Assembly (NCBI GenBank): GCA_963769935.1
Contig: CAVYNY010000020.1
Location: 256,001 to 320,000 of the forward strand
From: an uncultured delta proteobacterium
Lineage (GTDB): Bacteria; Desulfobacterota; Desulfobacteria; Desulfobacterales; JAFDCJ01
Length of the DNA: 64,000 bases
Direction of reading: 5' to 3'
The translations under genes were made by a program, and so were the position numbers. Positions 1,017 to 22,876 of this stretch are shown here, piece after piece; position 1 is the stretch's first letter; each line of letters begins with the position of its first letter. Under the pieces are notes generated by a model, which saw only the letters and a list, made by a program, of their open reading frames with translations, made no database searches and was not told the origin of the DNA.

Positions 1017-1045
1017 TTGCTTTTCGCTGAAGGTGGTGGTAGTTT
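1017..1045 (+). promoter_or_regulatory. sigma70-type promoter for riboswitch 1
   Basis: TTGCTT (1017-1022), 17-nt spacer with TG extension, TAGTTT (1040-1045), ending 13 nt before the aptamer. Confidence 0.55.
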
Positions 1046-1058
1046 AAATCTAAATTTC

Positions 1059-1108
1059 GGGGATGGAGTCCCCCTGTAACCGCCCGGCCCGGGCTGATGA
1101 CTCCTGCC
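1059..1108 (+). ncRNA. Fluoride riboswitch (crcB motif) 1
   Basis: GGGGATGGAGTCCCCC-TG-TAACCGCCCGG-CCCGGGC-TGATGACTCCTGC matches the GGCGATGGNGTTCGCC...AACCGC...GCTGATGACTCCTAC consensus; GGAGTC/GACTCC pseudoknot pairing intact. Confidence 0.93.
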
Positions 1109-1242
1109 GACAGCCATGTTCGGCGGGTTTTGATTAGTGGGAGGCCTGAAGGCGGTTTTTTTATTGCCACAGCGCGCCGACGGCCTCTCTGGGTGTGAGC
1201 ATTCCGGAAATGGATGCTCAGAATTCAACCGGGGAGACGGAA

Positions 1243-3048
1243 ATGACGCAGGCAGCACCCGCATCACTATATTGCAACGATCGCCCGCCTCTTGCGGCCT
1301 TGCTGGAAAAAGCGGCCGTCACGGTCGCGGAGATCGGACCGCAATTCATTCATTATGGCCGCAAGTTGACCGATTTGAACAGTCGCTTTTCCGAGGGCCG
1401 GTTTCACCTGGCGGTTCTCGGCCAGTTCAAGCGCGGCAAGAGCACTTTGCTGAACGCTCTGACGGGCCAGCCGATTCTGCCCGTGGGAGTCGTCCCCTTG
1501 ACCGCTGCACCGACCTTCCTTCAGTTCGGAGAGGCACCAAAAATCAGGGTAAGCTACCAGGATAACCGCCCCGCAGATGTATTCATCGGCGCCTCCACCG
1601 GCGAAAGATGCGCTTATTTGGCCGGCTTTGTCACTGAAAAGGGCAATCCCCAAAACAGGCGCGGCATTGCCGAGGTGCAAGTCGACCTGCCGGCGCCCCT
1701 TCTTTCCGGTGGCGTCGTATTGATCGACACGCCCGGCATCGGCTCCACCTACCGGCACAACACCACGGCTACCCTCGATTTCCTGCGGCAATGCGATGCG
1801 GCCCTTTTTCTGGTTTCGGCCGACCCGCCCATCACAGAAGTGGAGCTTGAGTTTTTACGGCAGGTGAGGGAAAAAGTGCCGCGGTTGTTCTTCGTATTGA
1901 ATAAAATCGATTACCTGGATAACGGCGAACTCGAAGAAGCGCTTTCCTTTTGCAAGAGCGTCCTGGCCCAGGAGGTTGGTTGGACCGGCGAATCTCCCGT
2001 TTTTTGCGTTTCGGCCCGCAAAGGCCTGGAAGCAAGAGCGGCCCAAGATCCCGGCGGATGGACCGCCAGCGGCATGGCGCAGTTGGAATCCTTCCTGGTG
2101 GATTTTCTTGCCAGAGAAAAGTTCAATGCCTTGATGGATGCCGTCTCCCGCCGGTCGCTGGATTTTATTGAGGCCATCCTGATGGAGGCCGGCATCGCTT
2201 TGCAGGCCCTGCAGCTGCCCCAACAAAAACTCGAAGAGAAAATCTCCATTTTTGAGGAAAGCCTGAAGCGGGCCGCGAGCGAGCGCGGGCTGATCCAGGA
2301 TGTTCTGGCAGGCGATAAAAAGCGGGTCGTGGCCTTTGTGGAGGAACAGGCCTGCGATTTGCGCGGGGAAGCCGAACAATTTTTGAAGAATACCATGCAT
2401 GGCGGCGCCGATTCAGGCAGCTGCGGCAAATCCACCAAAGCCGGTATCCAGCAGGCCTGGGCCGAAGCAATCCCCGACTTTTTCGAGCAGCAGCGGGCGG
2501 CGCTCAATGAACGCGTTCAGGCACGCCTATTGGAGTGCCTGGCACCGCATGAACAGCGCCTGACCCATCTCCTGGAAACACTGCGTCAGACTGCCGCCGA
2601 ACTGTTCCGGATACCTTACAGGCCCCTGACGCAGGAAGCGGCCCTGGAAATCAAAAAAAGGCCGTATTGGGTATTGAACACCTGGAACACCGATCCGCTG
2701 CCCATGCTTCAATCCATGGATCAACGTCTGGACGGACTGGTCCGGCGCAATGTCGAAAACATCCGCTGGTCCATGCTTCAGAACCTGAACATCTCCTTTG
2801 CCGGTTTTGCCCGCCGGACCCGGGAACGCCTGGATGAAACCGTTGCCGCCACCAAGGGGGCCATGGAGGCAGCCCATGCACGGCGACAGGCCCACGGCGG
2901 AAGCATTGAATCGGAAGCGGCTCGCATGGGCGACCGCATCGCGGTTTTGGAAGGGTTGAAAACCCAATTTGCCGTCTTGCGATCCGGCTTGCTTCAGGCT
3001 GCCGAGCCTAAATCGCAGGATGGTTTACCATCGGAGACCGGCGCATGA
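1243..3048 (+). CDS. Bacterial dynamin-like GTPase (Dynamin_N family)
   Basis: G1 GQFKRGKST, G2 region ILPVGVVPLT, G3 DTPG, G4 NKID, long helical C-terminus; ATG 1243 follows GGGGAG RBS (ORF track starts 1195). Confidence 0.88.
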   Translation: MTQAAPASLYCNDRPPLAALLEKAAVTVAEIGPQFIHYGRKLTDLNSRFSEGRFHLAVLGQFKRGKSTLLNALTGQPILPVGVVPLTAAPTFLQFGEAPKIRVSYQDNRPADVFIGASTGERCAYLAGFVTEKGNPQNRRGIAEVQVDLPAPLLSGGVVLIDTPGIGSTYRHNTTATLDFLRQCDAALFLVSADPPITEVELEFLRQVREKVPRLFFVLNKIDYLDNGELEEALSFCKSVLAQEVGWTGESPVFCVSARKGLEARAAQDPGGWTASGMAQLESFLVDFLAREKFNALMDAVSRRSLDFIEAILMEAGIALQALQLPQQKLEEKISIFEESLKRAASERGLIQDVLAGDKKRVVAFVEEQACDLRGEAEQFLKNTMHGGADSGSCGKSTKAGIQQAWAEAIPDFFEQQRAALNERVQARLLECLAPHEQRLTHLLETLRQTAAELFRIPYRPLTQEAALEIKKRPYWVLNTWNTDPLPMLQSMDQRLDGLVRRNVENIRWSMLQNLNISFAGFARRTRERLDETVAATKGAMEAAHARRQAHGGSIESEAARMGDRIAVLEGLKTQFAVLRSGLLQAAEPKSQDGLPSETGA

Positions 3049-3145
3049 GCTGTGGTTGCTGAAAATAGTTCTATTGCGATCTGGAAAATGAAATCCGAAG
3101 CAAAAATAGAACGAATGCAATTGAGCCGACTGCGAAAATTTTGTC

Positions 3146-3175
3146 TTGACTTAATTTTGAAAAGACTATAGTCAA
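3146..3175 (+). promoter_or_regulatory. Putative promoter/operator upstream of riboswitch 2
   Basis: TTGACT...TATAGT (15-nt spacer, suboptimal) with TTGACT/AGTCAA inverted repeat; same arrangement at 14803-14833. Confidence 0.45.
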
Positions 3176-3207
3176 AAAAACACTAGATAAGCAAAAACTG
3201 CCGAGAA

Positions 3208-3257
3208 GGGGGATGGAGTCCCCCTGATAACCGCCTTGATGGCTGATGACTCCTACC
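3208..3257 (+). ncRNA. Fluoride riboswitch (crcB motif) 2
   Basis: GGGGGATGGAGTCCCCCTGATAACCGCCTTGATGGCTGATGACTCCTACC. Confidence 0.95.
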
Positions 3258-3295
3258 ATGGCCGAGAATTCCTGGTGGGAGTTTATATATGAAAA

Positions 3296-3331
3296 GCTCC
3301 TGCCGGGTACGAGACCTGGAGGAGTTTTTTT
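3296..3331 (+). terminator. Intrinsic terminator of riboswitch 2 expression platform
   Basis: GCTCCT(G)CCGGGT-ACGAG-ACCTGGAGGAGT hairpin followed by a T-run. Confidence 0.75.
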
Positions 3332-3545
3332 GTGTGCCGCAACTTCTGTTTGTGGAAACCGCAGCAGGTTCCGAATCGTCTTAAAAACACGCTCCAGACT
3401 AATTTGTTTCCCGCCTCCAATGGGTCTCTTATCATAAATATAACAAATTTTGCGTCTGATCTTTCATTCTGCCGGACATGGCGTTTTTGGGTGCGCAGAG
3501 GACGCGATGTTGCGCGAGGCGGCGAATTTAAAAGGAGAAGGCTGG

Positions 3546-4496
3546 ATGCTTCAAAAGTTCATTTTCAATATCATTCAGGTTTTGGTCGTGCTGGCCTTTT
3601 CGCCCCTCGTCAAGGGGGTTATGGATCGCCTCAAGGAGCGGGTCCAGTCGAAGAGAGGTCCGAGTATCTTTCAGCCCTACCGGGACATCTGGAAACTCTT
3701 CCACAAAGATGAAGTGGTGTCGGAGCACAGCTCCTGGATTTTCCGGTTGACGCCCTATGTGTGCTTCACAACACCCATGTTTGTCGCCCTTCTTATCCCC
3801 GTACTGACGGATTATCCGCTCTTTTTTGCTTTTATGGCGGATATGTTGGGCGGCGGCTTCGTGCTGGCACTGGGCGGGTTTTTTGCAACTCTGGCCGCCG
3901 TGGATACCGGAAACCCGTATGGACCGATGGGAGCCAGCCGCACGCGGATGGTCGGTTTTCTGGCCGAACCCGTCTTCATGGTGGTATTCTTCACCCTCTC
4001 CTTTGTAGCCGGTTCCACCATTCCCTATATCGTTCAGAAAGTCTGGGTGACATCGATTGCGAATTTCTTCGATCCATCACATGTCCTCGTGATGCTCGCC
4101 TTCCTGATGCTCATTATCGCTGAAAACGGACGCATTCCGGTGGACAACCCTTCCGGTCATTTTGAGCTGGCCATGATTGATGAATCCAAAGGGCTGGAAT
4201 ATTCGGGCCGCGGCGCGGCGCTTATGAAGTGGGGCGGCGCGATGAAATTCTTCGTACTGCTGTGCATCTTTCTCAATGTGATCGTGACACCGTGGGGCCT
4301 GGCGCGCAGCGATGCCGTCTGGCAGATTTTGATGGCCATTCCGCTCATTTTGCTGAAAATGTTCGCCCTGGTCGTGGTTTTGGTGGTGATCGAGTCATCG
4401 CTTGCCAAGCTGAGGCTGTTTCGCATCACGGAGTTTCTGGGTGCGGCCTTCGTCACTTCGGTGGCGGCAGTGATTATCCAACTTCTGGAGATATAG
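3546..4496 (+). CDS. hyfC: HyfC/HycD (NuoH-like) membrane subunit of Ehr-type complex
   Basis: RGPSIFQPYRDIWKLFHK, ENGRIPVD, ELAMI, EYSG motifs; AAAGGAGA RBS before ATG 3546. Confidence 0.88.
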   Translation: MLQKFIFNIIQVLVVLAFSPLVKGVMDRLKERVQSKRGPSIFQPYRDIWKLFHKDEVVSEHSSWIFRLTPYVCFTTPMFVALLIPVLTDYPLFFAFMADMLGGGFVLALGGFFATLAAVDTGNPYGPMGASRTRMVGFLAEPVFMVVFFTLSFVAGSTIPYIVQKVWVTSIANFFDPSHVLVMLAFLMLIIAENGRIPVDNPSGHFELAMIDESKGLEYSGRGAALMKWGGAMKFFVLLCIFLNVIVTPWGLARSDAVWQILMAIPLILLKMFALVVVLVVIESSLAKLRLFRITEFLGAAFVTSVAAVIIQLLEI

Positions 4497-4505
4497 AGGT
4501 AAGAC

Positions 4506-5159
4506 ATGATTCAATTGAACGCTCTCGCGGGGGGACTCTTTCTGCTCACCATATTCGGGGTCATCGCCGTACGTCAAATCATCGGCGGTCTGAGGCTGTT
4601 TTTCATCCAGTCGATCCTGCTGGCCGGTTCGGCCTGTATCCTGGGCTATGAATTCGCCTCGATCCATTTGCTGGCGGTTGCCGGCATCACCCTGGCAGTC
4701 AAGTCCATCCTGATTCCCTGGCTCCTGCTGCGCACCCTCAGCCATGAGGTCCATGCCCGCCGGGAGATCACACAGGTCTTGAACATCCCCACCTCGCTGC
4801 TGGTTGCGGCGGCGATCACCATTTTGGCCTATTTTATTGTCCAGCCCCTGCTGGCCGTATCGTCTACGGCCTTTACCCGGATCAACCTGCCCATCGGTAC
4901 GGCCGGCCTTCTGCTGGGAGCCTACGCTGTGACAGTCAGGCGCGAGGCCTTGCCGCAGGTTCTGGGGATTCTGACCATGGAAAACGGGGCGTTTCTGGCA
5001 GGCGTTTCAATTGCCCCGAACTTGCCTTTCATCGCCGAACTGGCGGCTGCCTTTGACGTGCTGATCATCGCGATGGTGATGGGGCTTCTCGCCAGGCGGA
5101 TCCACAAACAGGTGGGTACCACGCTGGTGGGGGAAATGGCGACATTGAAGGAGGAATAA
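4506..5159 (+). CDS. hyfE: HyfE-like membrane subunit (NuoK-like C-terminus)
   Basis: 217 aa, very hydrophobic, QVLGILTMENG and ELAAAFDV motifs, position in operon. Confidence 0.85.
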   Translation: MIQLNALAGGLFLLTIFGVIAVRQIIGGLRLFFIQSILLAGSACILGYEFASIHLLAVAGITLAVKSILIPWLLLRTLSHEVHARREITQVLNIPTSLLVAAAITILAYFIVQPLLAVSSTAFTRINLPIGTAGLLLGAYAVTVRREALPQVLGILTMENGAFLAGVSIAPNLPFIAELAAAFDVLIIAMVMGLLARRIHKQVGTTLVGEMATLKEE

Positions 5160-5165
5160 AGTCTC

Positions 5166-6614
5166 ATGGAGCTTTGGTACATCCTGGCGATTCCCATGCT
5201 TGGCGCTGGCCTGGCGATGGTCCCGACGAGTAAACCCGGACTTGCGGCCGGGGCTACCGTGCTGGGGACCCTGGCAGTCTTTATTTTGTCCTGGCAAGCG
5301 GCCTGGGGCCTGGGGCACGGCATACCGGTGCCGGGCCCGGCAGAGTGGCTTGCCTGTGATGGGTTGAGCGCTCTTATTCTGATGCTGGTCTCCTTCGTGG
5401 GATGTGCGGCCGCCATATTCTCCTGGGGATATATCGGCCTGCCTGCTGATGACAAAGACCGGCAGCGCGCCCGGCGGTACTATAGGCGCTTTAACCTCTT
5501 CCTGCTTTCCATGCTGGCCGTCCCGCTGCTGTCTCAGATTGCGATGGTGTGGATCGCCGTGGAACTGACGACACTGCTTTCCGTATTCCTGGTGAGTTTT
5601 GAAAATACCGCTCAGGCCATGGAGGCCGCCTGGAAGTATGTGATTCTGACCTGCATGGGAGCGGCCCTGGCACTGATCGGGGTTTTGATTCTTTACTGGG
5701 GCCAGAGTCTTGCAGGCGGGGGGACGTTCACCTGGACGGGGTTGGCTGCCGCCTCACCCGGGATTCCGCCGATATTTCTCAAGACCGCCTTCCTCTTTAT
5801 CCTGGTAGGATTCGGGACCAAGGCGGGGCTGGTGCCTCTGCATACCTGGCTGCCCGATGCGCACAGCCAGGCCCCTTCACCGGTCTGCGCGCTGCTTTCG
5901 GGTGTCGAAACCACGACGGCCCTGTACGTCATCCTCAGACTTTTACCGGTCTTAAGCAATGTCTCCGGCAGCATCGGTTCGACCTGGTTGACGGTTTTCG
6001 GTTTGCTGTCCATGGGTGCAGCGGCCTTCCTGCTGATTCAGGTCCGGGATTACAAGCGGCTTTTTGCCTTTTCCACCATCGAGCATATGGGCATCATCCT
6101 GGTCGCGGCCGGAATCGGAGGAGAGGCCGCCCACCTGGCTGCCGCCGCCCAGATCATGACCCACGCCGTTACGAAGTCTTTCTGCTTTTATGCGGCCGGC
6201 GCCGTGCTGATGATGACCGGCACGCGCGAGATCGCTTCCGTGCGCGGACTGGTGCGGACTTCCCCGATTGTGGCGATTTGCCTGATGATCGGGGCCTTGG
6301 CCATCGCGGGCGCCCCGCCGTTCGCCGTGTTTTTGAGCGAGTTCGGCATATTCAGCGCCGGGCTTGCCGGAGGCCGTTATATCGTGACGGGTTTGTTCAC
6401 GCTCTTCATCACAGTAGCCTTCGGCGGCATCATGTACCAGGTCAACGCCATGGTGTTCGGCCGGGGTCCGGCCGGCGCCGCCCGAACCCGCCTGCCGCTG
6501 AGCTGCGGGGTTACCCTGGCACTGACCGTGCTGCCGGTGATTCTGCTCGGTTTGCATATTCCCGAACCGCTGCAAAACCTTTTGCGGTCTGCAGCGGCCG
6601 GCTTTGGGAGGTAA
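5166..6614 (+). CDS. hyfF: HyfF-like antiporter-type membrane subunit (NuoL/M/N family)
   Basis: WIAVELTT, EAAWKY, GFGTKAGLVPLHTWLPDAHSQAPSPV, KRLFAFSTIEHMG. Confidence 0.88.
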   Translation: MELWYILAIPMLGAGLAMVPTSKPGLAAGATVLGTLAVFILSWQAAWGLGHGIPVPGPAEWLACDGLSALILMLVSFVGCAAAIFSWGYIGLPADDKDRQRARRYYRRFNLFLLSMLAVPLLSQIAMVWIAVELTTLLSVFLVSFENTAQAMEAAWKYVILTCMGAALALIGVLILYWGQSLAGGGTFTWTGLAAASPGIPPIFLKTAFLFILVGFGTKAGLVPLHTWLPDAHSQAPSPVCALLSGVETTTALYVILRLLPVLSNVSGSIGSTWLTVFGLLSMGAAAFLLIQVRDYKRLFAFSTIEHMGIILVAAGIGGEAAHLAAAAQIMTHAVTKSFCFYAAGAVLMMTGTREIASVRGLVRTSPIVAICLMIGALAIAGAPPFAVFLSEFGIFSAGLAGGRYIVTGLFTLFITVAFGGIMYQVNAMVFGRGPAGAARTRLPLSCGVTLALTVLPVILLGLHIPEPLQNLLRSAAAGFGR

Positions 6615-6621
6615 GACGAAA

Positions 6622-8229
6622 ATGGCCCTTCCCCTGGACAACATCGTGCAATGGACGAATCTGGCTGAAGCGCAACATCTCACGCTGGCCGGGCCGGGTC
6701 GAAGCGAGTCTTGATGAAGACAGGCTTATCGCTCATATCAAATGCGATCCCGGCGACCTGCAGGCGCTCTGCGGCTGGCTTGTTTCCGAATTGGGTTACA
6801 GCTTGGCCGCGCTGGTCGTCGAGGAAGAAGCGTCCGCATGGATGCTGCGCTACTTCTTTTACGGAGATCTGGGAAGCGGGCAGGTGCATGTTGTCGTCTG
6901 CTACCCCCTGTCCCAGACCACGATTCCCAGTATCAGCCGGCCGGTCCACGCCGCCGACTGGCAGGAGCGGGAGATTGAAGATCTCTTCGGGCTTCGGTTC
7001 GAAGGCCATCCCCGGCTGGGAGACTTTGTCCTGCACGAGGAATGGCCCGAGGGCGTCAACCCCATGCGGACATCTTTTGATGCCGCCGGAGCCTATCCTC
7101 ACAGGCAGCCGGATCCTGAATGGAGCCCGCTTGCCATCGTGGAAGCCCCCGGGGCCTTCATGATGCCGGTGGGGCCGGTCTATTCCGACCATGCCGAATC
7201 CGCCCTTTTTCTGCTCGAAACGGTCGGAGAGGATGTCCTGCGAACCATTCCGCGTTTTTTTTACAAGTATCGTGGGTTGGAAAAAATCGCGGAGGGAAAA
7301 TCCGTCGATCAGGTCCTTTTGCCGGTCGAAAGATTTTCAGGAACCTCCGCATTCGCGCACTCACTGGCCTTTTGCCGGGCCGTGGAAGAAATTTGCGGGG
7401 TGCGGGTTCCGGACAGAGCCCAGGCCCTGCGGGTGCTTCTGGCAGAGCTGGAGCGGCTGCGTCATCATGTGGCCGTGATTGCCGGTATCTGCCAGTCGAC
7501 GGCCCTTGCCGTGGCGACGAGCCAGGCAAGCATCCTGGAAGAAGAGATTCTGCGGCTTTGCTGTACCCTGGCGGGGCACCGCTATCTTTTCGGAATCAAC
7601 GTGCCGGGAGGCCTTGTCCTGGATCTGAGCAATGCTGAGTGCGACAAACTCGCTCAAGCAGCCTGGGGTGTTCTGGAACGACTGAAAAATCTGCAGGACA
7701 TGCTGCGCTTTTCAAGCTCCTTCCTGGATCGTCTGGAGGAAGTAGGGATCGTCTCCAGGGAAAAGTCCGTCTCTTACGGATTGGTGGGTCCTGTGGCCAG
7801 GGCGTCGGGCGTCTCCCGCGATCTGCGGGCGGCGCTGCCCTACGGCTATTACGACAGCGCCCTTAAGTTCCGGATCCCGCGCGAACAGGAAGGCGACGGT
7901 TATGCCCGCCTGCGGATTTTTTTCGGCGAAGCGGAACAATCGGTGAACATCATCAGCCAGGTGGCCGCTGCCCTTCCGCAAGGCCGGTCCGGTGTGAGCC
8001 GTTTGATCCGGCTCCGGGGGCCGCCCTCGGCTGGGTCGAAGCGCCTGCCGGCGCGGCATTTCACTGGGTGCGCATCGGGGTCAACGGCAAGCTTGCCCGC
8101 TGCCGCGTCATGACGCCGTCCTTCGTCAACTGGCATGGATTTCATCTTGCCGCAGAGGACTTCGCCTTCCAGGATTTTCCGATCATCATGGCGACCTTCG
8201 GGCTCTCCAATGCAGAATGCGACCGTTAG
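6622..8229 (+). CDS. HyfG/HycE-like (NuoC+NuoD fused) large subunit lacking Ni-binding motifs; frameshifted near ~6650 and ~7983
   Basis: WQEREIEDLFGLRFEGHP, YKYRGLEK, ELERLRHH, GLVGPVARASG, GDGYAR; C-terminus continues in another frame WVEAPAG...PSFVNW...DFPIIMATFGLSNAECDR-stop 8229. Confidence 0.82.
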
Positions 8230-8241
8230 GAGGAAAAAATT

Positions 8242-9003
8242 ATGACAAAATGGGTATGGCAAGGGCTTCGGACAGGCATCAAGACCACCGAATACCCTCA
8301 TTCTCCGGAAACCGCAGCGGGGGTTTCTCCGGGAAGGCCTGTTGATCAAGAGCCTGTCCTGCAGAAGGAAATCCGGCCTGTGATGGATTTATGTCCCACC
8401 AACGCCCTGCTCCGATCGGCGGACAGGATCAGCGTGGACTACCGGCGCTGTATTCACTGCTTCCGGTGCAAACGCTTGCCCGCTGAACCTTTGAGCTGGG
8501 AACCCGGCTATGAGTGGGGGGAGTTTGTGTCCGATCAGGGGCCACTTGACCAGACCTTTGCGGCTTCCCTTCACATCCGCATCGTAGATGCGGGCGCCTG
8601 CGGGGCTTGTTTGAGCGAGATCAGGCAGATCACCAGCCCCTACTACAATATCCACCGCCTCGGTTTCTTTATCACACCTACTCCCAGAGCCGCGGATGTT
8701 TTGCTGGTGGCAGGGCCGGGAACCGACCACATGCGGGTATCGCTGCAAAAAGTCTTTGAGGCCATGCCCGCCCCAAAGCGGGTGATTGCCGTGGGGACCT
8801 GTGCGCTGACCGGCGGCGTTTTCGGGCCGAGCTTCGCCACGCAGGCCGGGGTGGGCGAAATGATTCCGGTGGATGTGGAGGTGCCGGGCTGTCCGCCGCC
8901 GCCCCTGGCAATCATCCACGCGGCGCTGGTTGCAGTCGGCCGAAAAAAAACGTCGAACGTGCCATCGCCTCCGGAAGCAGAGAAAAACAAGGAGCGGCTA
9001 TAA
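8242..9003 (+). CDS. Fused ferredoxin (HyfH/NuoI-like) + HyfI/NuoB-like Fe-S subunit
   Basis: CPTNA and CIHCFRC, then DAGACGAC, TPRAADVLLVAGP, GTCA, VPGCPPPP. Confidence 0.85.
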   Translation: MTKWVWQGLRTGIKTTEYPHSPETAAGVSPGRPVDQEPVLQKEIRPVMDLCPTNALLRSADRISVDYRRCIHCFRCKRLPAEPLSWEPGYEWGEFVSDQGPLDQTFAASLHIRIVDAGACGACLSEIRQITSPYYNIHRLGFFITPTPRAADVLLVAGPGTDHMRVSLQKVFEAMPAPKRVIAVGTCALTGGVFGPSFATQAGVGEMIPVDVEVPGCPPPPLAIIHAALVAVGRKKTSNVPSPPEAEKNKERL

Positions 9004-11141: not shown

Positions 11142-11173
11142 AGGCATCTGCGAAAGTCAGAATAGGCCATTGC

Positions 11174-11212
11174 ATGACGGCCCTTACGGAAAAACACAAG
11201 CGCCCGGCGTGA
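11174..11212 (+). pseudogene. Truncated 5' copy of the 15252 gene (MTALTEKHKR)
   Basis: ATGACGGCCCTTACGGAAAAACACAAGCGC vs ATGACGGCCCTTGCAGAAAATCACAAGCGC at 15252: 27/30 nt identical. Confidence 0.7.
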
Positions 11213-11269
11213 TGAAATTTTCCAAAGCGGGAGAGTTTCTGTAAAATCTGCCAGTCGCGCGTTCGCGCC

Positions 11270-11760
11270 CTGGTTGGAGAACACGAGATACTTGTCGGCA
11301 GCGACGGTTTGCTGCATCATCGGCAGGTTGCCCACGATGTCTGCTAACTCGAAGGAACGACAGCTCACATGGTCATCGATGAGGAGTATGCCGGCCATAT
11401 CCTCATCGGGGATTCGGTCAAGGCCGACACACGGCAAGCGGTTTCGCAATTGCGAAGCATCGGGATCGAGCGCGTTGAAATACCGGCGGCAACCGCTTTA
11501 CGGCTGAGGCAATTGCCAATAATCTATGCGTGGATGCGTTCCATGTAGAACTCTTTGCCGGAAGACAAGGTGCGCTTGCTGGAAGAAATCCAGGCGGCAA
11601 CCGATCATGGCGGCAAAATTGCCTTTGTCGACGACGGGATCAATGACACTCCGGTTATTGCCAGGGCCGATGTCGGGGCCGCCATGGGTGCCCTTGGCAT
11701 GGATGCAGCCATCGAGACTGCCGACGTAGTGCTCATGACCGATTCTGCGCTGAAAGCGGA
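11270..11760 (+). pseudogene. Remnant of heavy-metal P1B-type ATPase (CadA/ZntA-like)
   Basis: Fragments YAGHILIGDSVKAD, PEDKV, AFVDDGINDTPVIARADVGAAMGALGMDAAIETADVVLM with stops and frameshifts. Confidence 0.8.
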
Positions 11761-11821
11761 TGATCTTTTCTGTGTTAGATTACGAACCAGATCATCTCAC
11801 CTTTCTTTTTCGGACGATTCG

Positions 11822-12763
11822 CTACCGTGAAACATATTGCAGATGCAGTGCGAAATCGATTATGCATGTGATGAAAAAGGACACCGTAGGCGTTAGAAAC
11901 CAGCCCGTAAAGATGCTGTAAAGTGTCTTGCGATCGATGGTCTTGGCACCCTTGATGAATCCAACGCCTATAACAGCGCCGATCACGGCCTGCGTGGTGG
12001 ATACCGGTACGCCGATGATCGCATTGATATGAACGGTAACCGCTTCGCCCAAAACAACGATCAGGGCAGAAAAAGGATCCAGGCGCACAAGCTTTCGACC
12101 CACCGTCTCCATAACGCCTCGGCTGTAAGTCAGAACTCCAAATCCAATGCTTATGGCACCTATAAGTGCGGCATTGAATATAGTTAGGGTCCCGGCCGCA
12201 ACGAAGACGGCCGAGGTATTAGCGACATTGTTGGCGCCTAAAGAGTAGGAGGCATATGACCCTGCTATCACCAATGCGATCCGCACAAGTATATCGGCCT
12301 GAAAAATGTTTGTCCTCAGGCGATTGTAAACTAACGCTAAAACCTTGTACAGCATGATGGAGGCCAAGATCGCACAAAAGGGGGTCGCGAACCAGCAGAT
12401 GACTACTTTTTCCAAACCGGCCGAGTTGACCTGGTTGTTTAGAAATCCGATCCCCAAGATGGCCCCGACCACCCCCTGGGAAGTCGACACAGGCAGGCTG
12501 AGCAATGTCATGACGGTCACCGTCAAGGCGACTGCAACCGTTATTGCTACGGCTTGTTTCAAGTCGATTGATGTCAAACTGCTCAGGGTCTTGATGCCAG
12601 CCTGTCCTTCGAGCAGAGAGCCGATCAGTACAAAGATGGCGCATAGAATCGCTGCTGTCCGAAAGCGCACCATGCGCGAGGCCACCGCTGAACCGAAACA
12701 ATTAGCAGCGTGGTTGGCTCCTAGAGACCACCCCAGAAATACTCCGCCCAGAAGCGAATACAT
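11822..12763 (-). CDS. PiT/PHO4 family inorganic phosphate/anion permease
   Basis: GANHAAN...FG, LPVSTSQ, GANNVAN, GVPVSTTQ repeats; AGGAGG RBS. Confidence 0.85.
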   Translation of the reverse strand: MYSLLGGVFLGWSLGANHAANCFGSAVASRMVRFRTAAILCAIFVLIGSLLEGQAGIKTLSSLTSIDLKQAVAITVAVALTVTVMTLLSLPVSTSQGVVGAILGIGFLNNQVNSAGLEKVVICWFATPFCAILASIMLYKVLALVYNRLRTNIFQADILVRIALVIAGSYASYSLGANNVANTSAVFVAAGTLTIFNAALIGAISIGFGVLTYSRGVMETVGRKLVRLDPFSALIVVLGEAVTVHINAIIGVPVSTTQAVIGAVIGVGFIKGAKTIDRKTLYSIFTGWFLTPTVSFFITCIIDFALHLQYVSR

Positions 12764-12880
12764 TAAAGCCTCCTTTTCAATGTCAATAATTTCAGCCCAT
12801 TGGAGAGCCGATTTGCATGTTCCGAAATCTGCTCTATGGCCATAGCCAACTCCTTCAGCTGAAATCTTCTTAGAAAATTT
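12763..12880 (-). pseudogene. Probable C-terminal remnant of DUF47 (PhoU-like) PiT accessory gene
   Basis: Minus frame QLKELAMAIEQISEHANRLSNGLKLLTLKRRL-stop; its TAA overlaps the PiT ATG (TAATG), the usual DUF47-pit arrangement; no intact upstream part. Confidence 0.45.
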
Positions 12881-13169
12881 TACTGATCTTGGCAGTCACT
12901 CTATTTGATAAAATGCCCGTTTCATATGCACTAAAACACTATCGAGTTCCCAAGTTCCACGCAAAAGCCTATCTCAGATTCACGCCTACTCTACGCCGGA
13001 GGCCGTTTAGGCAGCAAACAGGTGCCCCCTAAACTGAGTTAAAATTATCAATATGCAAAAAATGAAGTCTAAAATTCTAATTTTTACAAATAAAATAATT
13101 TATTTTCTCGCGGATATATCTGCATCACTGAGATGACACAGTGGCCATAAAAAGATTTTTTCAGTTCGA

Positions 13170-14636
13170 TTATCGGGGTTGGACATGTTCAATGCGCTTG
13201 ATGCCTTCCCTATTCAATACCACCCGGTACCGCATGTATAAATCCTTTTCGGCAAGGGCCATCCGAACGACCATATTAAGGTGATAAACCCTTGCACCCC
13301 TGATACGATAGTATCCCTCGTCGTTCATTACGAAGAGCTCCTTCTTGGGATCATCCATCCGCCGTAGAAATTCTTGGACATTGAAACGCATAATATCATT
13401 GACACCGGATACCTCGTATTTCGAGAAAATGCGGCGCACTCTTTCCCGATGCAGTCGAATACGCTTGCGGTACAGCAGAATGTCCTCGCCAATCCATCCG
13501 TTTTCAATTTCTGTAATGTGGTCTCGATTTCGCAACTCCCGCACCTCCGCCGAAAGTTTGCGTTCTTTGACAAACCCGAAGCTTTCCCTGCAAACCCCGA
13601 CGATTCCGCCGGCAACATCGCGTACACGAACCTTATGATCAAAAAGAAAGCGCATCATCTTGCGGGACAGGTGATACTTTAGAAGATCCTTGATTCGGTC
13701 CTTAAAGATATAGCTGATGACAAGCGTCACAAAAACCGGCATGGTCAGGCTGCCATAGACAGTTTGGGAAATGAATGCGGCGGCCGTTGCAAATACCATA
13801 GCGGCAGCGGCGGCCAAACCAAAAAAGACTTGCTGCAGAAAAAGCCAGTCCGTTTTTACTTCTGCATCAAGAAACAGAATACTGGCGACATATTTTTTTA
13901 ATACGCTCCTGCGAAACACCAAAGTTTCGTTATCCTTCTGCTCTTCCGGTATCGAAGCATAGCGTCTTTTCTTGCGATAGTTGACTTCACCTTCAATCAA
14001 CGCCAGCATCTTTTTACGGTTCTCCGGGCTCAGACCTGAATCGATGGCTGAGATAGCATCCAGCAAGTGGTAGGTGTAGTCTTCCACAGTCAGACTGATG
14101 TACTCGTCACCAAAAAGGTAGATTTCAAAGGTACGCTGATCAACACTTGGGATCTGGATAATCTGTTGGAGTTCATGGTATCCGGCGGTTATGTCTTGAA
14201 TCGCAGTCAGATACTCGCGAGTAAGGCGTTCCCTATCCTGCGCATCAACGGTCCTGAGAATATAAGCCACATAGTCGCGGACCGCACTCTTGAGGATACA
14301 GCAGAACATCTTGATTTGCCCTTCAAACGCCCGTAGAGGAATCTTCGAGGATTGCTGGGCTATCTGTTCCAAATCACTGCGAAGTTGCGCCAATGGACTC
14401 TGAGCGCCTGCCTTAAAGCGGTTCAGCGGCACCGACGGTGTCCTTATGCGGATGTAGGACTGTAAATCGGTATAGAACTGCTGTTTGCTATATGTCTGAG
14501 GATGTACGCCCAGGCTGCGAGGGGCGAAAAAATACAAATCCACCTCATATGAATTCCGCCGATGGTTGTCAAGAAGGGGATAATTTAGCTTCAGCTCCAT
14601 TTGATGCAGATCGTGGATGCTGATCCTAGCTTCCAT
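13170..14636 (-). CDS. Hypothetical protein, 488 aa, with a two-helix transmembrane hairpin
   Basis: Long ORF with AAAGGA RBS; hydrophobic VFFGLAAAAAMVFATAAAFI and VFVTLVISYIF segments. Confidence 0.75.
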   Translation of the reverse strand: MEARISIHDLHQMELKLNYPLLDNHRRNSYEVDLYFFAPRSLGVHPQTYSKQQFYTDLQSYIRIRTPSVPLNRFKAGAQSPLAQLRSDLEQIAQQSSKIPLRAFEGQIKMFCCILKSAVRDYVAYILRTVDAQDRERLTREYLTAIQDITAGYHELQQIIQIPSVDQRTFEIYLFGDEYISLTVEDYTYHLLDAISAIDSGLSPENRKKMLALIEGEVNYRKKRRYASIPEEQKDNETLVFRRSVLKKYVASILFLDAEVKTDWLFLQQVFFGLAAAAAMVFATAAAFISQTVYGSLTMPVFVTLVISYIFKDRIKDLLKYHLSRKMMRFLFDHKVRVRDVAGGIVGVCRESFGFVKERKLSAEVRELRNRDHITEIENGWIGEDILLYRKRIRLHRERVRRIFSKYEVSGVNDIMRFNVQEFLRRMDDPKKELFVMNDEGYYRIRGARVYHLNMVVRMALAEKDLYMRYRVVLNREGIKRIEHVQPR

Positions 14637-14802
14637 AGGAGTCCTTTTGTCGCTGGTTACCCATTAATACAGATTTAATTTCAAAGAGTTAGATAACAGC
14701 ACCATGGTTTTGGGTGTCAAGCCGATTTGTATAGGGTGAATAAGGCAAGGAATATGTTCCAGTTCGATGAAATGAGCCCTCCGATACATTGAAAATTTTT
14801 GC

Positions 14803-14833
14803 TTGACTTTGCCTCGATAAGAACTATAGTCAA
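14803..14833 (+). promoter_or_regulatory. Putative promoter/operator upstream of riboswitch 3
   Basis: TTGACT-16 nt-TATAGT, followed by CAA completing a TTGACT/AGTCAA inverted repeat. Confidence 0.5.
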
Positions 14834-14862
14834 ATTAATATAATTCGCTCGAAAAAAAAACG

Positions 14863-14912
14863 GGGGGATGGAGTCCCCCTGATAACCGCCTTGACGGCTG
14901 ATGACTCCTACC
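14863..14912 (+). ncRNA. Fluoride riboswitch (crcB motif) 3
   Basis: GGGGGATGGAGTCCCCCTGATAACCGCCTTGACGGCTGATGACTCCTACC; one loop substitution relative to riboswitch 2. Confidence 0.95.
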
Positions 14913-14950
14913 ATGGCCCAAAATTCCTGGTAGGAGTTTCTGTCTGAAGT

Positions 14951-14985
14951 ACTCCTGCCGGGTACGAGACCTGGGGGAGTTTTTT
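14951..14985 (+). terminator. Intrinsic terminator of riboswitch 3 expression platform
   Basis: ACTCCT(G)CCGGGT-ACGAG-ACCTGGGGGAGT hairpin followed by TTTTT. Confidence 0.75.
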
Positions 14986-15251
14986 CATGCGCAGCAAATT
15001 CCGCCTGTTGAAATCGCAGCAAGTCCCGAATCTCTTTCTGAACACTCGCCGGATAGATCGATGCCCGTCCTCCAGCAGGTCTCCCATTAAAAATTCAACT
15101 AGTCCGCAGAGGCTGTTTAATCCTGATGCCCGCGGAGAATTTGCAATCTTGCACTGCCATTAGGAGGATTTCCTCATTGGCACATTTGGCAAGAGATAGG
15201 GCATACTAGAGAAATAAGTTCGATCCAGCCAAAATAAAGAGAGGTGCCGTC

Positions 15252-15671
15252 ATGACGGCCCTTGCAGAAAATCACAAGCGCGCCTTGCTGAGCAGGCTGC
15301 GGCGAATCGACGACCTGCTGAGGGAAATCGAATACCGTGCGCGGCCGGACGGCATCGAGTCGGCTTTCGAGGACGAAATCTCAGATTGGACATGCGCAAA
15401 GCGCCGGATCGTATTCGATTGGATCGCTGAAGTTCGGCAACTGTTGAAATCCATCATCGAACGCCAGGGCCTTGTGGCTGCGCAATCCACCGCCAGTGCA
15501 GCCTGGCTCGTTCAAACCAGCGTGGATCTCATGCTCAGTGTTGTCGACGAGTTGCAACCGGAGCGTATGCACGGCTACGGCGAGCTTTCCGTAGCGGCTG
15601 GCCGCGAATTGGATGAAATCGTTTCAGATCTGCGGCGGCAGTTTTTGAAATTGACTGAAACATTTTGTTAA
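15252..15671 (+). CDS. Hypothetical all-helical protein (139 aa)
   Basis: GAGGTG RBS; first gene behind riboswitch 3; ELQPERMHGYGEL motif. Confidence 0.75.
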   Translation: MTALAENHKRALLSRLRRIDDLLREIEYRARPDGIESAFEDEISDWTCAKRRIVFDWIAEVRQLLKSIIERQGLVAAQSTASAAWLVQTSVDLMLSVVDELQPERMHGYGELSVAAGRELDEIVSDLRRQFLKLTETFC

Positions 15672-15832
15672 AGTCCAAGCATTAAGTTGCAGTTTTTTAA
15701 AAAGTGGGCTTTAGAGGTAACTTTCTTATGCGCTCATTTGCCGAACAAAGACTTGACTCGCAAATACATCTGCCTGCAGGCCGGGAGCCGGATGTCGCGC
15801 TTCCGCGTCATGGGCCGGAGGGTATTCGTGCA

Positions 15833-17368
15833 ATGACCTTCTGCAGCATATTAGTTGAAAACCCGCAAGACAGCCTCAAAAAAGAAACTCCGCAAGTGCC
15901 CGAATTTTTTAGCGACTTAAATCTTGATCAGATTATAGACGCCGTCACGGCCGGCCGGCAGGACTATAATCTGAAACCGTTTTTTTACACTTCCTTAAAT
16001 GACGTCGATACCATCAAGTACCGCCAGGAAGTCGCGCAGGATCTCGAAAGCGAAACGTTGCTGGCAAGCATAAAATCTTTCGCCCAAGAGATGATCGTCA
16101 TGCGCCGCTATCTATCCATGATAGAAAAGCTTCACTATAAATACCATAAAGAGGGCTGGTTTTTGGAAGCGGTCATAGTTTATTGTGATGCCGTCAACCG
16201 TCTGGCGCATGATTTATCTCAGGCAAAATTAAAATCGCGTGGGCTTTCGGCTTTCCGTGATTATATATCGAACTATGCCGAATCCGATGGTTTCTCATCG
16301 CTTCTGGCCGAAACGAAAAAGCTTAAAGTCGGCTTGTCCACTGTGAAATATTGCGTGCTTATAGACGGAGGGCATGTCAAGGTCCGTAAATATGAAGCTG
16401 AAATCGATTACAGTACAGATGTGGAGCAAACATTCGAAAGGTTCAAACAGGGCGCGGTAAAAGATTACAAGACAGAGCTGGCCATCGGTGCGGGCATGAA
16501 TCATGTCGAAGCCAATATACTGGATTTTGTAGCCAAATTGTATCCCGACCTATTTTCAAGGCTTGATGATTATTGCACCAAAAACGCTGATTATCAGAAT
16601 GAAACGTTAGCTGCTTTTGACCGTGAAATCCAATTTTACGTAGCCTATCTAGAGTATGTCGCAAAAACCAAACGCGCGGGATTGAAATTTTGTTACCCGC
16701 AAATCGTCGACCGGAGCAAGGAAGTCTATGATCACGAAGGGTTTGATTTAGCGCTGGCCCATAAACTCATTGCCGGAAACTCGCCTGTTGTCTGCAATGA
16801 TTTTTACCTGAAGGGCAAGGAGCGCATCCTTGTCGTCAGCGGTCCGAACCAGGGCGGCAAAACCACCTTTGCCCGCACCTTCGGGCAGCTGCATTACCTG
16901 GCCGGCCTGGGATGCCCCGTGCCGGGCCGGGAGGCGCAGCTTTTTCTCTGCGACAGACTCTTTACGCATTTCGAAAAGGAAGAAAACATCCAAAATCTGC
17001 GCGGCAAACTGCAGGACGACCTGGTCCGGATTCACCATATTCTCGACCGGGCCACGCCCAACAGCATCGTCATCATGAATGAAATCTTCACTTCCACTGC
17101 CCTAAAAGACGGGATTTTTTTAAGCCAAAAGGTGATGGAAAAAATAATCCGATTGGATTTGCTGTGCGTCTGGGTGACATTTATAGATGAGATGGCCTCT
17201 ATCAGCGAAAAAACCGTGAGTATGGTCAGCACTATCGTGCCTGAAAATCCGGCCTTGCGGACCTTTAAAATTGTGAGAAGGCCGGCCGACGGACTCGCCT
17301 ATGCAACGGCCATTGCCGAAAAGTATCGTCTGACGTACAGGCAGCTAAGGGAGCGCCTAAACTCATGA
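15833..17368 (+). CDS. MutS domain V ATPase, MutS4A-like (no mismatch-binding domain)
   Basis: VVSGPNQGGKTTF, LFTHFEKEE, GKLQDDL, VIMNEIFTST, VTF; GGAGGG RBS before ATG 15833. Confidence 0.85.
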   Translation: MTFCSILVENPQDSLKKETPQVPEFFSDLNLDQIIDAVTAGRQDYNLKPFFYTSLNDVDTIKYRQEVAQDLESETLLASIKSFAQEMIVMRRYLSMIEKLHYKYHKEGWFLEAVIVYCDAVNRLAHDLSQAKLKSRGLSAFRDYISNYAESDGFSSLLAETKKLKVGLSTVKYCVLIDGGHVKVRKYEAEIDYSTDVEQTFERFKQGAVKDYKTELAIGAGMNHVEANILDFVAKLYPDLFSRLDDYCTKNADYQNETLAAFDREIQFYVAYLEYVAKTKRAGLKFCYPQIVDRSKEVYDHEGFDLALAHKLIAGNSPVVCNDFYLKGKERILVVSGPNQGGKTTFARTFGQLHYLAGLGCPVPGREAQLFLCDRLFTHFEKEENIQNLRGKLQDDLVRIHHILDRATPNSIVIMNEIFTSTALKDGIFLSQKVMEKIIRLDLLCVWVTFIDEMASISEKTVSMVSTIVPENPALRTFKIVRRPADGLAYATAIAEKYRLTYRQLRERLNS

Positions 17369-18873
17369 AGGCTTTCCTCATGCATAAGGATCAGGACTTT
17401 GACCTAAAGCGGAAGTTGCCGACAAATGAACAAGCACTGACCCAGGACCTGGAATTAAACACGCTGTTCAACGCCATGGCGCTCGGTGACGAATTTCTAT
17501 TTGATGCGGCCAAGAAGGCCGTTTTTTGGGGTTTGAACAACGATCTGGCAACAATCCGGTACCGTCAAAGCATTCTAACAGACTGCCTGAAAAATTCCTC
17601 CATTGTCAGGGAAATTTACGACATCGCGGTGGAATCCATTGAAAACAAGAAAAGGCATCATATCGGCATCTTCGGCCGTTGGCCCGGTTCAATCCTGCAT
17701 GGCGCAATTGATATGATGGAAATGTTTGTCGACCAGCTTAAAAAGTTAAAAAATATCTCCGATAAAAATGTCGCTAAATTCGGGTCGGAGGGATTTGCCA
17801 GGTTTTTTAGAATGATTCATACGGAGCTGGAAGATGAATATCTCGTCGGCATCCAAAATCATCTCAGAGAACTGAAATTCCGCCACGGCGTGTTGCTCAG
17901 CGCCGAATTGGGAAAAGGCAATGAAGGTGCCGATTATATACTTCGCAAGCCGCACGCTGAAAATCGGAGTTGGATGCAGCGCATCTTTGCCAAAAAGCCG
18001 CCGGTCTATACCTTTTCCATCCATCCTCGCGATGAAGCCGGCGGCAGGTTTCTGTCGGATTTAAAAGACAGGGGCATCAATCTTGTTGCCAATGCCCTTG
18101 CGCAGTCCGCTGATCATATTGAGAGCTTCTTTAAAATGCTGCGAATTGAATTGGCTTTTTACATCGGCTGCTTGAATTTATATGAACAACTTGCCCATAT
18201 GGGGGAACCGGTATCCTTTCCCCTACCCGCGGCCTCCAGCGAACGCAAACATTCTTTCCGGGGATTGTACGATGTCTGTCTGGCCTTAACCATGCAGCAA
18301 AAAATCGTCGGCAACGACGTGAACGCCGACAACAAAGAACTCGTGATCATCACAGGCGCGAACCAGGGCGGCAAATCAACCTTTCTGCGAAGTATCGGTT
18401 TGGCTCAATTGATGATGCAATGCGGCCTGTTTGTACCGGCAGAGTCTTTCTGTGCTAATGTCTGCGACGGCCTTCTCACGCACTACAAACGGGAGGAGGA
18501 CGCTGCCATGGAAAGCGGCAAGCTCGATGAAGAACTCAGCCGGATGAGCGACATCGTAAATAGTATAACGCCTAATTCCATGGTGTTGTTTAATGAGTCG
18601 TTTGCCGCAACCAACGAAAGGGAGGGCTCGGAGATCGCAAGGCAGATAGTCTGTGCGTTGTTGGAAAAGAGGGTCAAAGAGTTCTTCGTTACGCATTTAT
18701 ACGAATTTCCGCAGAGTATTTACGACACAAAAACGGAAAGCGCCATTTTCCTGCGGGCCGACAGACAAATCGACGGAAAGCGAACGTTTAAGTTGGTCGA
18801 AGGAGAACCGCTGCAAACCAGCTTCGGCGCAGATTTGTATAAGAGTGTATTCGGAACGGATAAATTGACATGA
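17365..18873 (+). CDS. MutS domain V ATPase, MutS4B-like
   Basis: ITGANQGGKSTFLRS, THYKREED, GKLDEEL, VLFNESFAATNEREG, VTH; ATGA overlap with upstream paralogue. Confidence 0.85.
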   Translation: MKAFLMHKDQDFDLKRKLPTNEQALTQDLELNTLFNAMALGDEFLFDAAKKAVFWGLNNDLATIRYRQSILTDCLKNSSIVREIYDIAVESIENKKRHHIGIFGRWPGSILHGAIDMMEMFVDQLKKLKNISDKNVAKFGSEGFARFFRMIHTELEDEYLVGIQNHLRELKFRHGVLLSAELGKGNEGADYILRKPHAENRSWMQRIFAKKPPVYTFSIHPRDEAGGRFLSDLKDRGINLVANALAQSADHIESFFKMLRIELAFYIGCLNLYEQLAHMGEPVSFPLPAASSERKHSFRGLYDVCLALTMQQKIVGNDVNADNKELVIITGANQGGKSTFLRSIGLAQLMMQCGLFVPAESFCANVCDGLLTHYKREEDAAMESGKLDEELSRMSDIVNSITPNSMVLFNESFAATNEREGSEIARQIVCALLEKRVKEFFVTHLYEFPQSIYDTKTESAIFLRADRQIDGKRTFKLVEGEPLQTSFGADLYKSVFGTDKLT

Positions 18874-19529
18874 ATTTTGCCGGCAGGAAACGAGAGATAG
18901 CAGCAGTCATAAAATCTCTGAGGCAAAACCGCAACGTCGTTCTGACCGGCCGATACGGAGTGGGCCGCACAAGCCTGGTTAAACACATTGCCAGGCTTCA
19001 CTCGGCAACCTGGCAATTTCTGTTTGCCGATTTTTCCAAGACGGTTGCCCGATCCTGCAACGAGATGATCGGCCAATTGGCATCCGGAGGGAGCAAGGCG
19101 CAACAACATCAATATACGCGGCTGATGTATGCAAAGGAAATTCTTATGGAGAGAAAGGCGGCCGCGGATCTGCCGCGAGTGATCGTTTTGGACAATATCG
19201 GCAAACTCTCCCATTCCAAACTTGCTTTCCTCCGCGACATGCGGCTCGACAGCGACCTTCTTTTTATCGCCGTCGCCGAAAGTTTCCTGCCGGAGGCCGA
19301 TCTGTTCCGGTTGAGAGCGACTCTGTACCCTTCGGATGTGCTGGCACTTCACAACCTTAAACGTAAGGAGACAGTCGCCTTCTTCAGAACTTTTTCTCAG
19401 AGAAAGCGACTGGGATGGAGTGAAAGTTTCATTAAGATGCTGGCGGCCTCGACAGAAGGCTACGCGCTGCTGATGAAGGAAAGAGCCCAACGAGAGGCGG
19501 GCCTTACCGCGAATGGTAAGAACCTTTAA
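18870..19529 (+). CDS. Small P-loop/AAA-like protein with degenerate Walker A
   Basis: FAGRKREI, VVLTGRYGVGRTS, VIVLDN; ATGA overlap with MutS4B-like gene. Confidence 0.7.
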   Translation: MNFAGRKREIAAVIKSLRQNRNVVLTGRYGVGRTSLVKHIARLHSATWQFLFADFSKTVARSCNEMIGQLASGGSKAQQHQYTRLMYAKEILMERKAAADLPRVIVLDNIGKLSHSKLAFLRDMRLDSDLLFIAVAESFLPEADLFRLRATLYPSDVLALHNLKRKETVAFFRTFSQRKRLGWSESFIKMLAASTEGYALLMKERAQREAGLTANGKNL

Positions 19530-22740: not shown

Positions 22741-22876
22741 TCAAAATCAACTATCTGATATTTGTGCGATTTTCGATCGGCGCACCGATGATTGGGAATC
22801 TGTAAAAAAGCCTGCTTTTTCTCTTCCTTTGCGGGCCGCCGCTTCAACCGCCTGCGCAGATTCTGAGGAATATCAA

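Follow-up and report, generated by a model that had tools for sequence, protein, structure and literature searches.

A 64-kb stretch of DNA from an uncultured delta proteobacterium (contig CAVYNY010000020.1, positions 256,001 to 320,000; hereafter the window) carries three fluoride riboswitches, which lie ahead of a bacterial dynamin-like GTPase gene, a six-gene membrane complex assigned to the Ehr group, and a block encoding a small helical protein (H139), a MutS4A/B-like pair and a P-loop protein. This locus raises the question of whether these genes make up one dedicated fluoride-stress machine, as the initial annotation had proposed, or are separate units under the same kind of switch. Our analysis favors the latter, a patchwork island of separately switched fluoride-stress modules, to which we give a probability of about 0.6. 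The modules are likely to guard the cell against fluoride, each by a different route.

Separately switched modules and their recurrence

A scan of the window at the Rfam gathering threshold gave three matches in total, all to the fluoride riboswitch family RF01734 and all on the + strand. They scored 56.7 to 56.9 bits against a cut-off of 34 bits (E about 4e-13) and covered model positions 1 to 64, in agreement with the initial annotation, which had described three intact crcB-class aptamers in sense orientation, each heading a separate unit. In a genome-wide search, in which 150 of 1096 loose candidates were scored, these three were the sole RF01734 matches. The switches and the genes behind them are as follows.

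1050..1113, + strand, fluoride riboswitch aptamer 1 (RF01734), 56.7 bits, 130 nt 5' of the dynamin ATG
1243..3048, + strand, bacterial dynamin-like GTPase, 601 aa with an ATG behind GGAG (617 aa if GTG 1195 is used), Pfam Dynamin_N 3e-27
3200..3262, + strand, fluoride riboswitch aptamer 2, 56.9 bits, promoter-like TTGACT-15 nt-TATAGT upstream
3546..4496, + strand, HyfC/NuoH-like membrane subunit of Ehr, Pfam NADHdh
4506..5159, + strand, HyfE/NuoK-like membrane subunit, from profile matches
5166..6614, + strand, HyfF antiporter-like subunit, Proton_antipo_M
6620..8229, + strand, Ehr large subunit (NuoCD/HycE-like), start approximate, frameshifts near 6672 and 7984
8242..9003, + strand, Ehr small subunit (NuoB-like), four FeS (iron-sulfur) cysteines and an N-terminal ferredoxin-type cysteine set
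9003..11141, + strand, HyfB antiporter-like subunit, frameshifts near 9094, 10770 and 11039
14855..14917, + strand, fluoride riboswitch aptamer 3, 56.7 bits, TTGACT-16 nt-TATAGT at 14803-14830, both hairpins kept
15252..15671, + strand, H139, 139 aa, predicted four-helix protein without a Pfam family
15833..17368, + strand, MutS4A-like ATPase, 511 aa, MutS_V, predicted MutS lever and ATPase fold, Walker B NE
17365..18873, + strand, MutS4B-like ATPase, 502 aa, MutS_V, ATGA overlap with MutS4A, Walker B NE
18870..19529, + strand, P-loop (AAA_16/AAA_22-like) protein, 219 aa, ATGA overlap with MutS4B

In the leader of aptamer 1, a hairpin followed by T-rich runs overlaps the 3' end of the aptamer, and the fold of this leader is weak (z -1.6). 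The hairpin at 3248-3284 overlaps the 3' strand of aptamer 2 and is followed by a second hairpin at 3297-3324 with a T7 tail (z -6.2); the leader of aptamer 3 likewise has an overlapping hairpin and a second one with a T-run (z -4.2), and sequence comparison showed it to be almost identical to the switch 2 cassette, of which it is a copy. Among 55 distinct family matches, the nine pairs of P1 and the pseudoknot were 99.6% paired, eight of the nine showed compensatory changes, and this covariation was matched in none of 500 shuffles. Promoter-like sites such as that of switch 2 occurred at chance-level counts in a promoter scan, which the switch 2 site itself, with its 15-nt spacer, escaped. 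Nine matches to the fluoride switch model were seen inside 21.5 kb of one Chloroflexia contig (locus L035).

The distribution of these modules was examined in the best 80 of 106 MutS4A loci (Deltaproteobacteria, Chloroflexota, Bacillota, Spirochaetota, Acidobacteria, Actinomycetota and others) and the best 80 of 122 metagenome Ehr loci, many of the latter on short contigs. Switches were searched for with a covariance model built on 56 Rfam-confirmed matches, 53 from the MutS4A loci and 3 from the window; the Ehr loci were not used in its construction. A switch was present in 67 of the 80 MutS4A loci, a count that is partly circular because the model was trained largely on the same loci; a regular expression had detected 47 and was abandoned. 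Rfam itself was positive in 26 of the 44 MutS4A loci on which it was run, 33 of these 44 having been picked as negative by the regular expression. Of the 75 loci that could be tested, 40 had the switch immediately 5' of mutS4A and 61 had one no more than 4.5 kb upstream of it; of 26 testable dynamin genes in the MutS4A loci, 19 came immediately after a switch. In the Ehr loci, after 14 with less than 450 nt of flank had been set aside, a sense switch was located 140 to 592 nt 5' of hyfC in 63 of 66 (50 of 53 once near-identical copies were merged). In a phylum sample of 351 genomes of at least 90% completeness, 3 of 3 genomes with a close Ehr large subunit had a switch on the contig that encodes it, whereas the contigs carrying a distant relative (31-33%) had none in 11 genomes. 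The link between switch and Ehr is specific to the Ehr clade of the window.

Neighboring genes in the 80 MutS4A loci were counted by single-query tblastn: dynamin in 34, enolase in 30, a DUF6062-like domain in 27, MFS in 25, USP in 19, a cation/H+ antiporter in 15, Fluc in 13 and Ehr in 11. Of these, enolase, MFS, USP, the cation/H+ antiporter and Fluc are classic members of fluoride regulons. The gene set recurs behind switches in many phyla. Gene order and orientation were shuffled among loci, with enolase, USP, MFS, cation/H+ antiporters and Fluc intermixed. Dynamin, Ehr and MutS4 occurred together in 6 of the 80. In the 55 MutS4A loci of at least 15 kb, Ehr accompanied dynamin in 5 of 29 cases and was present in 5 of the 26 loci that lack dynamin (p=1.0), and in the 80 Ehr loci dynamin was found in 16, MutS4 in 8 and Fluc in 2, many of these contigs being short.

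These results bear on the proposal of one dedicated machine in which dynamin and MutS4 assist the assembly or remodelling of Ehr. The six complete loci would suit it, as would a relative in which hyfB is followed directly by the H139 gene (see below) and the transfer as a block of enolase, six NADH-dehydrogenase/hydrogenase-like genes and MutS4A/B in Mycobacterium yongonense (PMC5742357; the papers cited here are represented by the accessible parts of their text). On the other hand, the presence of Ehr does not depend on that of dynamin, neither partner is seen in most Ehr loci, the units have separate switches in shuffled order, and their GC contents differ (58-59% for dynamin and Ehr, 48% for MutS4). 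A single machine, and with it the role of dynamin and MutS4 as partners of Ehr, is therefore very unlikely; switch control and recurrence, also part of the initial interpretation, were borne out, as was the lack of a known exporter described below. In 22 genomes of the same genus, close Ehr was absent and any switch was found in two. This absence and the mixed GC content point to horizontal acquisition of the island modules.

The third switch has a local history of its own, which involves the following features.

11174..11212, + strand, remnant of an H139 gene start, 12 codons, directly 3' of hyfB, matching 15251-15283 at 29 of 33 nt
11213..14700, strand not assigned, insertion of about 3.5 kb outside switch control
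within 11213..14700, + strand, P-type ATPase fragment, pseudogene
11822-12763, - strand, PiT/PHO4-family gene within the insertion, with a paralog elsewhere in the genome
13170-14636, - strand, 488-aa gene within the insertion, no Pfam/NCBIfam match, with an 80% identical paralog on another contig (C12) of the genome

One public contig (run X4) joins position 11150 to 15251, so that hyfB is followed directly by the H139 gene. To judge from the H139 stub, this contig and the near-identical cassettes, switch 3 is likely a copy of switch 2 that was made as the insertion split the Ehr-H139 junction, which would have re-supplied the H139-MutS4 block with a switch. The three switches would therefore not represent three independent recruitments.

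Several genes were seen in the neighborhood of such loci. PiT genes lie 3' of Ehr in 4 of the 80 Ehr loci, on the + strand there; phosphate import has been tied to fluoride tolerance (PMC11139923). A lipid transport operon of the PqiA-PqiA-PqiB(MlaD)-PqiC type at 22631-26481, just downstream in the window, has no switch and is probably unrelated. An IscU/NifU-like gene paired with a GGGtGRT protein gene was present in four fluoride islands (L017:2369-4118, L049:8116-9818, L052 and L063), and two HEAT-repeat families occurred in 14 and 12 of the 80 MutS4A loci (L020:9537-9983, L043:13726-14661 and others), some directly behind a switch. A Spirochaetia locus carries a HEARO RNA match of 111 bits (L051:16068-16308).

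Proteins encoded by the three units

The large subunit of the second unit has no Ni-Fe cysteine pairs: its two motifs read ERFSGTSAFAHS and ...FGLSNAECDR, and the ten commonest forms of each motif among relatives (47 and 42 sequences) were also without CxxC. Published Ehr complexes have group-4-hydrogenase-like subunits lacking the Ni-Fe CxxC motifs together with Mrp-like antiporter subunits, and no function has been assigned to them (PMC6349859, PMC10284858). Because the Ni-Fe cysteine pairs are missing from the large subunit and from the common forms in its relatives, the unit fits the definition of Ehr and was not assigned to formate hydrogenlyase; a group 4 NiFe hydrogenase was rejected on the same grounds. 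The Ehr label is an architectural one, taken from the group-4-like large and small subunits and the HyfB/C/E/F-type membrane subunits. A search of plasmids gave no Ehr match at 1e-80.

Single-base indels near 6615, 6672, 7984, 9094, 10770 and 11039 break the genes of the Ehr large subunit and hyfB in the present assembly. At each of the six sites, a compensating indel was found in contigs of several independent public runs, and the enolase gene of the source genome is likewise split into two frames, which suggests assembly indels as the cause. The frameshifts are therefore more likely assembly errors than strain-specific lesions. Since the public contigs diverge by 1-8% from the window over this stretch, the indels could also, with lower probability, reflect decay in this strain. 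In its strongest form, decay would make the Ehr unit a remnant and the island no longer functional as a whole; the clustering of six indels in 6600-11100, the H139 stub and the adjoining P-type ATPase pseudogene would accord with this. Such a loss is nevertheless quite improbable in view of the open frames in independent runs, the split enolase and the intactness of all three switches.

The dynamin-like GTPase is present as a single copy in the source genome. It matched the structures of BDLP (PDB 2j68), a Campylobacter dynamin (5owv) and IniA (6j72), and alignment revealed the G1, G3 and G4 motifs, a long helical body and trunk, and a membrane-tip region about 19 residues shorter than that of its homologs. 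A dynamin-based anti-phage system was considered and rejected: PADLOC gave weak LeoA/LeoBC matches on the dynamin alone and no match for the other four proteins.

H139 gave no profile similarity to an alignment of the dynamin and no match at E<=0.001 in a fold search; its single-sequence structure model was weak (pLDDT 57), and the Atlas returned unnamed clusters only. The family recurs in fluoride islands, and in two loci (L078 and L087) it is fused to the N terminus of a dynamin-like GTPase. In the MutS4A loci of at least 15 kb, H139 was found in 10 of 29 with dynamin and 1 of 26 without it (p=0.006, although kin among these loci are not independent). H139 is likely a partner of the dynamin-like GTPase.

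Other dynamin architectures were seen in these islands. Dynamins of about 870-890 aa with a C-terminal fusion to a Cys/His-rich DUF6062-like domain are encoded at L042:13103-15721, L043:7166-9784 and L060:5011-7683; the free DUF6062-like domain also recurs, and its presence is associated with that of dynamin (p=0.004). Another type of dynamin, of about 555 aa with GQFKAGKS and a hydrophobic tip, is present in L017, L018, L023, L041, L049, L061, L062 and L089, mostly behind fluoride switches.

An adjacent gene pair in which the stop overlaps the start and each product has the MutSac ATPase domain is the signature of MutS4A/B (Lin et al. 2007, PMC2190696). The pair in the window shows such an overlap (ATGA), as do 59 of 66 related loci, and the MutS4 label is drawn from this architecture. 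The 219-aa P-loop protein was found in 8 of the 80 MutS4A loci. All Walker B motifs matched in the two subunits, 74 of 74 and 59 of 59, carry Asn (NE), whereas the genome's own MutS has DE. MutS1 mismatch repair was rejected as an identity, since Pfam gives MutS_V alone, without a mismatch-recognition domain or Smr, and Walker B reads NE.

The predicted structure of MutS4A is confident (pLDDT 86), and about 480-590 columns, most of the protein, align with the folds of MutS, MSH and MutS2. This fold would suit a fluoride-induced DNA-processing factor, acting in recombination or damage, in an island that is mainly a general stress cassette; Weinberg et al. (2010, PMC2864571) suggested DNA-damaging stress, and a role on DNA is indicated by the rise in homologous recombination that MutS4 caused in Mycobacterium smegmatis (55 versus 22 colonies; PMC5742357). 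The latter effect comes from one small study, no mismatch-recognition or Smr domain accompanies MutS_V, and MutS-type ATPases also serve jobs away from DNA: a weak match to the reactivase KamC model was obtained, and the ribosome-bound MutS2 structure 7qv3 was among the fold matches. We regard the DNA-processing role as possible, though on balance unlikely. E. coli MutS D693N, which has the same exchange, shows an empty metal site in the crystal and still hydrolyses ATP (PMC2857095). By analogy, the Walker B Asn may render MutS4A/B less sensitive to Mg-fluoride trapping through lowered Mg binding.

Fluoride exporters and the role of the modules

The initial annotation had recognised no Fluc/CrcB or CLC-F gene in the window, and a search of the rest of the genome extended this finding to the whole assembly (7.99 Mb, 41 contigs, 96.7% complete). 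PF02537 had no match in the genome, and the best hit of an 18-sequence Fluc profile against six unfiltered frames had an E value of 1.6. Seven CLC matches were obtained, and none contained GNNLI, GREGT or GEVTP, the CLC-F signatures (PMC11139923), in the frames extracted, with the frame of one fragment excepted; the full-length CLCs were 29-31% identical to the CLC-F query, which had been confirmed against PDB 6d0j. Stockbridge and Wackett (2024, PMC11139923) put the share of GEBA strains with an exporter at over 85%. In the phylum sample, Fluc was found in 150 of 351 genomes and CLC-F-like proteins in 18 (5 without Fluc), while 196 had neither. The missing exporter is therefore less telling than had been assumed.

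One rival explanation is a substitute exporter: the Ehr clade would be a third bacterial fluoride exporter whose antiporter-like subunits expel F- by redox energy, replacing Fluc and CLC-F. Its switch link is the tightest of all modules (63 of 66 loci). Among the module genomes, Fluc was found in 1 of the 8 that have close Ehr and in 17 of the 41 that do not, and CLC-F in none of the 49; Fluc was present in 2 of the 80 Ehr loci. In a sample of the order, Fluc was absent from the six switch-bearing genomes and present in 19 of 35 others (p=0.023); of those six, one carries CLC-F behind its switch, and dynamin and Na+/H+ exchangers occur in two genomes each. However, the exclusion between Ehr and exporters was not significant (p=0.23 and 0.13), and 17 of the 49 module genomes, mostly metagenome-assembled genomes of unstated completeness, had no Fluc over the cut-off, CLC-F or Ehr. 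Although 196 of the 351 phylum genomes lack both exporters, close Ehr occurs in just four, and most of the exporter-less genomes are without any module. In addition, Mrp/Nuo-type subunits transport cations in characterised cases. Fluoride export by Ehr is thus improbable.

An island-specific MFS transporter, a candidate fluoride-related transporter, was seen in about 25 of the 80 MutS4A loci, 10 times directly behind a switch (for example L056:13409-14635). The source genome has no close homolog of this island type.

For the patchwork of separately switched modules, the following scheme is proposed. Fluoride is established to turn switches of this class ON (PMC2864571, PMC11139923). A rise of cytoplasmic F- would fold the aptamers, prevent the overlapping hairpins and switch on transcription, as expected from the riboswitch class. 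Hydrogen fluoride (HF) that enters the cell lowers the cytoplasmic pH and dissipates the proton gradient (PMC11139923). Because Ehr has two antiporter-like subunits and FeS sites and no Ni-Fe centre, it may act as a redox-driven cation/H+ translocator, bringing pH and membrane potential back into balance as HF enters and so limiting F- build-up without carrying F-. We infer its ion, direction and electron donor; a donor is not encoded in the island. By weak-acid reasoning, F- trapping would grow with the pH gradient, so that an exporter-less cell would benefit from converting this gradient into potential or Na+. Among switch-linked genes, exporters alone are commoner than Na+/H+ antiporters (PMC11139923). 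The idea of an ion-pumping membrane complex that counters HF-driven acidification was retained as the best guess for Ehr itself, and given up as part of one machine. The dynamin-like GTPase, with H139 as its likely partner, would repair or remodel stressed membrane, as its family suggests, and MutS4A/B may form a heterodimeric ATP-driven clamp in which the Walker B Asn would lower Mg binding.

Several observations weigh against this scheme. The exporter shortage of module genomes fits a substitute exporter better than pure homeostasis: in the phylum sample, exporters were present in 1 of 10 MutS4A genomes against 154 of the other 341 (p=0.047) and in none of the four close-Ehr genomes. The Ehr genes are frameshifted in the present assembly, and the copy of this strain could be decaying. 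No switch was found in 13 of the 80 MutS4A loci. The H139 remnant and the public contig indicate that Ehr and H139 are adjacent in relatives, so that some coupling is possible, and the recombination effect of MutS4 in M. smegmatis speaks for a role in DNA. A bolder combination is a speculative proposal that we hold to be improbable: fluoride-switched Ehr would give anaerobic lineages, more than half of whose sampled genomes lack Fluc and CLC-F alike, a third route of fluoride export or tolerance that runs on redox energy and takes the place of these exporters, and MutS4A/B, made resistant to fluoride by its Walker B Asn, would free enzymes or ribosomes from Mg-fluoride trapping.

Relation to known systems

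The associations between switch and genes are partly already in print: mutS and 'formate hydrogen lyase' were listed downstream of crcB RNAs (Weinberg et al. 2010, PMC2864571), as the initial annotation had stated. Dynamin and H139 were not found as switch-linked genes in the accessible text of PMC2864571, PMC7266159 and PMC11139923, and the supplementary text files of Weinberg et al. gave no match for dynamin, mutS or formate hydrogen, although the per-motif gene tables are perhaps not among these files. No paper naming a link of the switch to Ehr, MutS4 or dynamin-like proteins was found in the literature covered, outside of which lie Baker et al. (2012) and its supplement. The word 'fluoride' is absent from the accessible part of PMC10284858 and has no occurrence in that of Kim et al. 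(2017, PMC5742357), and the accessible MutS4 literature (PMC2190696, PMC5742357) makes no mention of an invariant Asn in Walker B.

Ehr, MutS4 pairs and most bacterial dynamins are without a known job, and a near-obligate fluoride switch provides each of them with a signal and with an easy way to assay it. In the clade of the window, the switch-linked 'formate hydrogen lyase' is not a hydrogenase, which corrects the usual reading: it need not signal a shift to fermentation. The absence of known exporters from more than half of the phylum sample, against their presence in over 85% of GEBA strains, raises the question of how these anaerobes handle fluoride.

Compared with the known fluoride (crcB) regulon (PMC2864571, PMC7266159, PMC11139923), the window has the same aptamer class with overlapping terminator-like hairpins, and its relatives likewise carry enolase, Na+/H+ antiporters and Fluc. 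It differs in that 'formate hydrogen lyase' is here an Ehr without Ni, the island encodes no formate dehydrogenase, 'mutS' is a MutS4A/B pair, and the source genome is without Fluc or CLC-F. The Ehr unit shares its subunit make-up and the loss of the Ni-Fe CxxC motifs with published Ehr complexes; in contrast to distant Ehr-like relatives (ending ...SYSGHDL), whose contigs in 11 genomes are all without a switch, its clade lies behind the fluoride switch in 63 of 66 loci. The GTPase shares Dynamin_N and a helical body with BDLP, the Campylobacter protein, IniA and PADLOC LeoA/LeoBC, whereas it is located behind a fluoride switch, has a shortened tip, and is encoded separately from H139, which is fused to it in relatives. 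The island of M. yongonense (Kim et al. 2017, PMC5742357) likewise combines an adjacent MutS4 pair with enolase and six NADH-dehydrogenase/hydrogenase-like genes.

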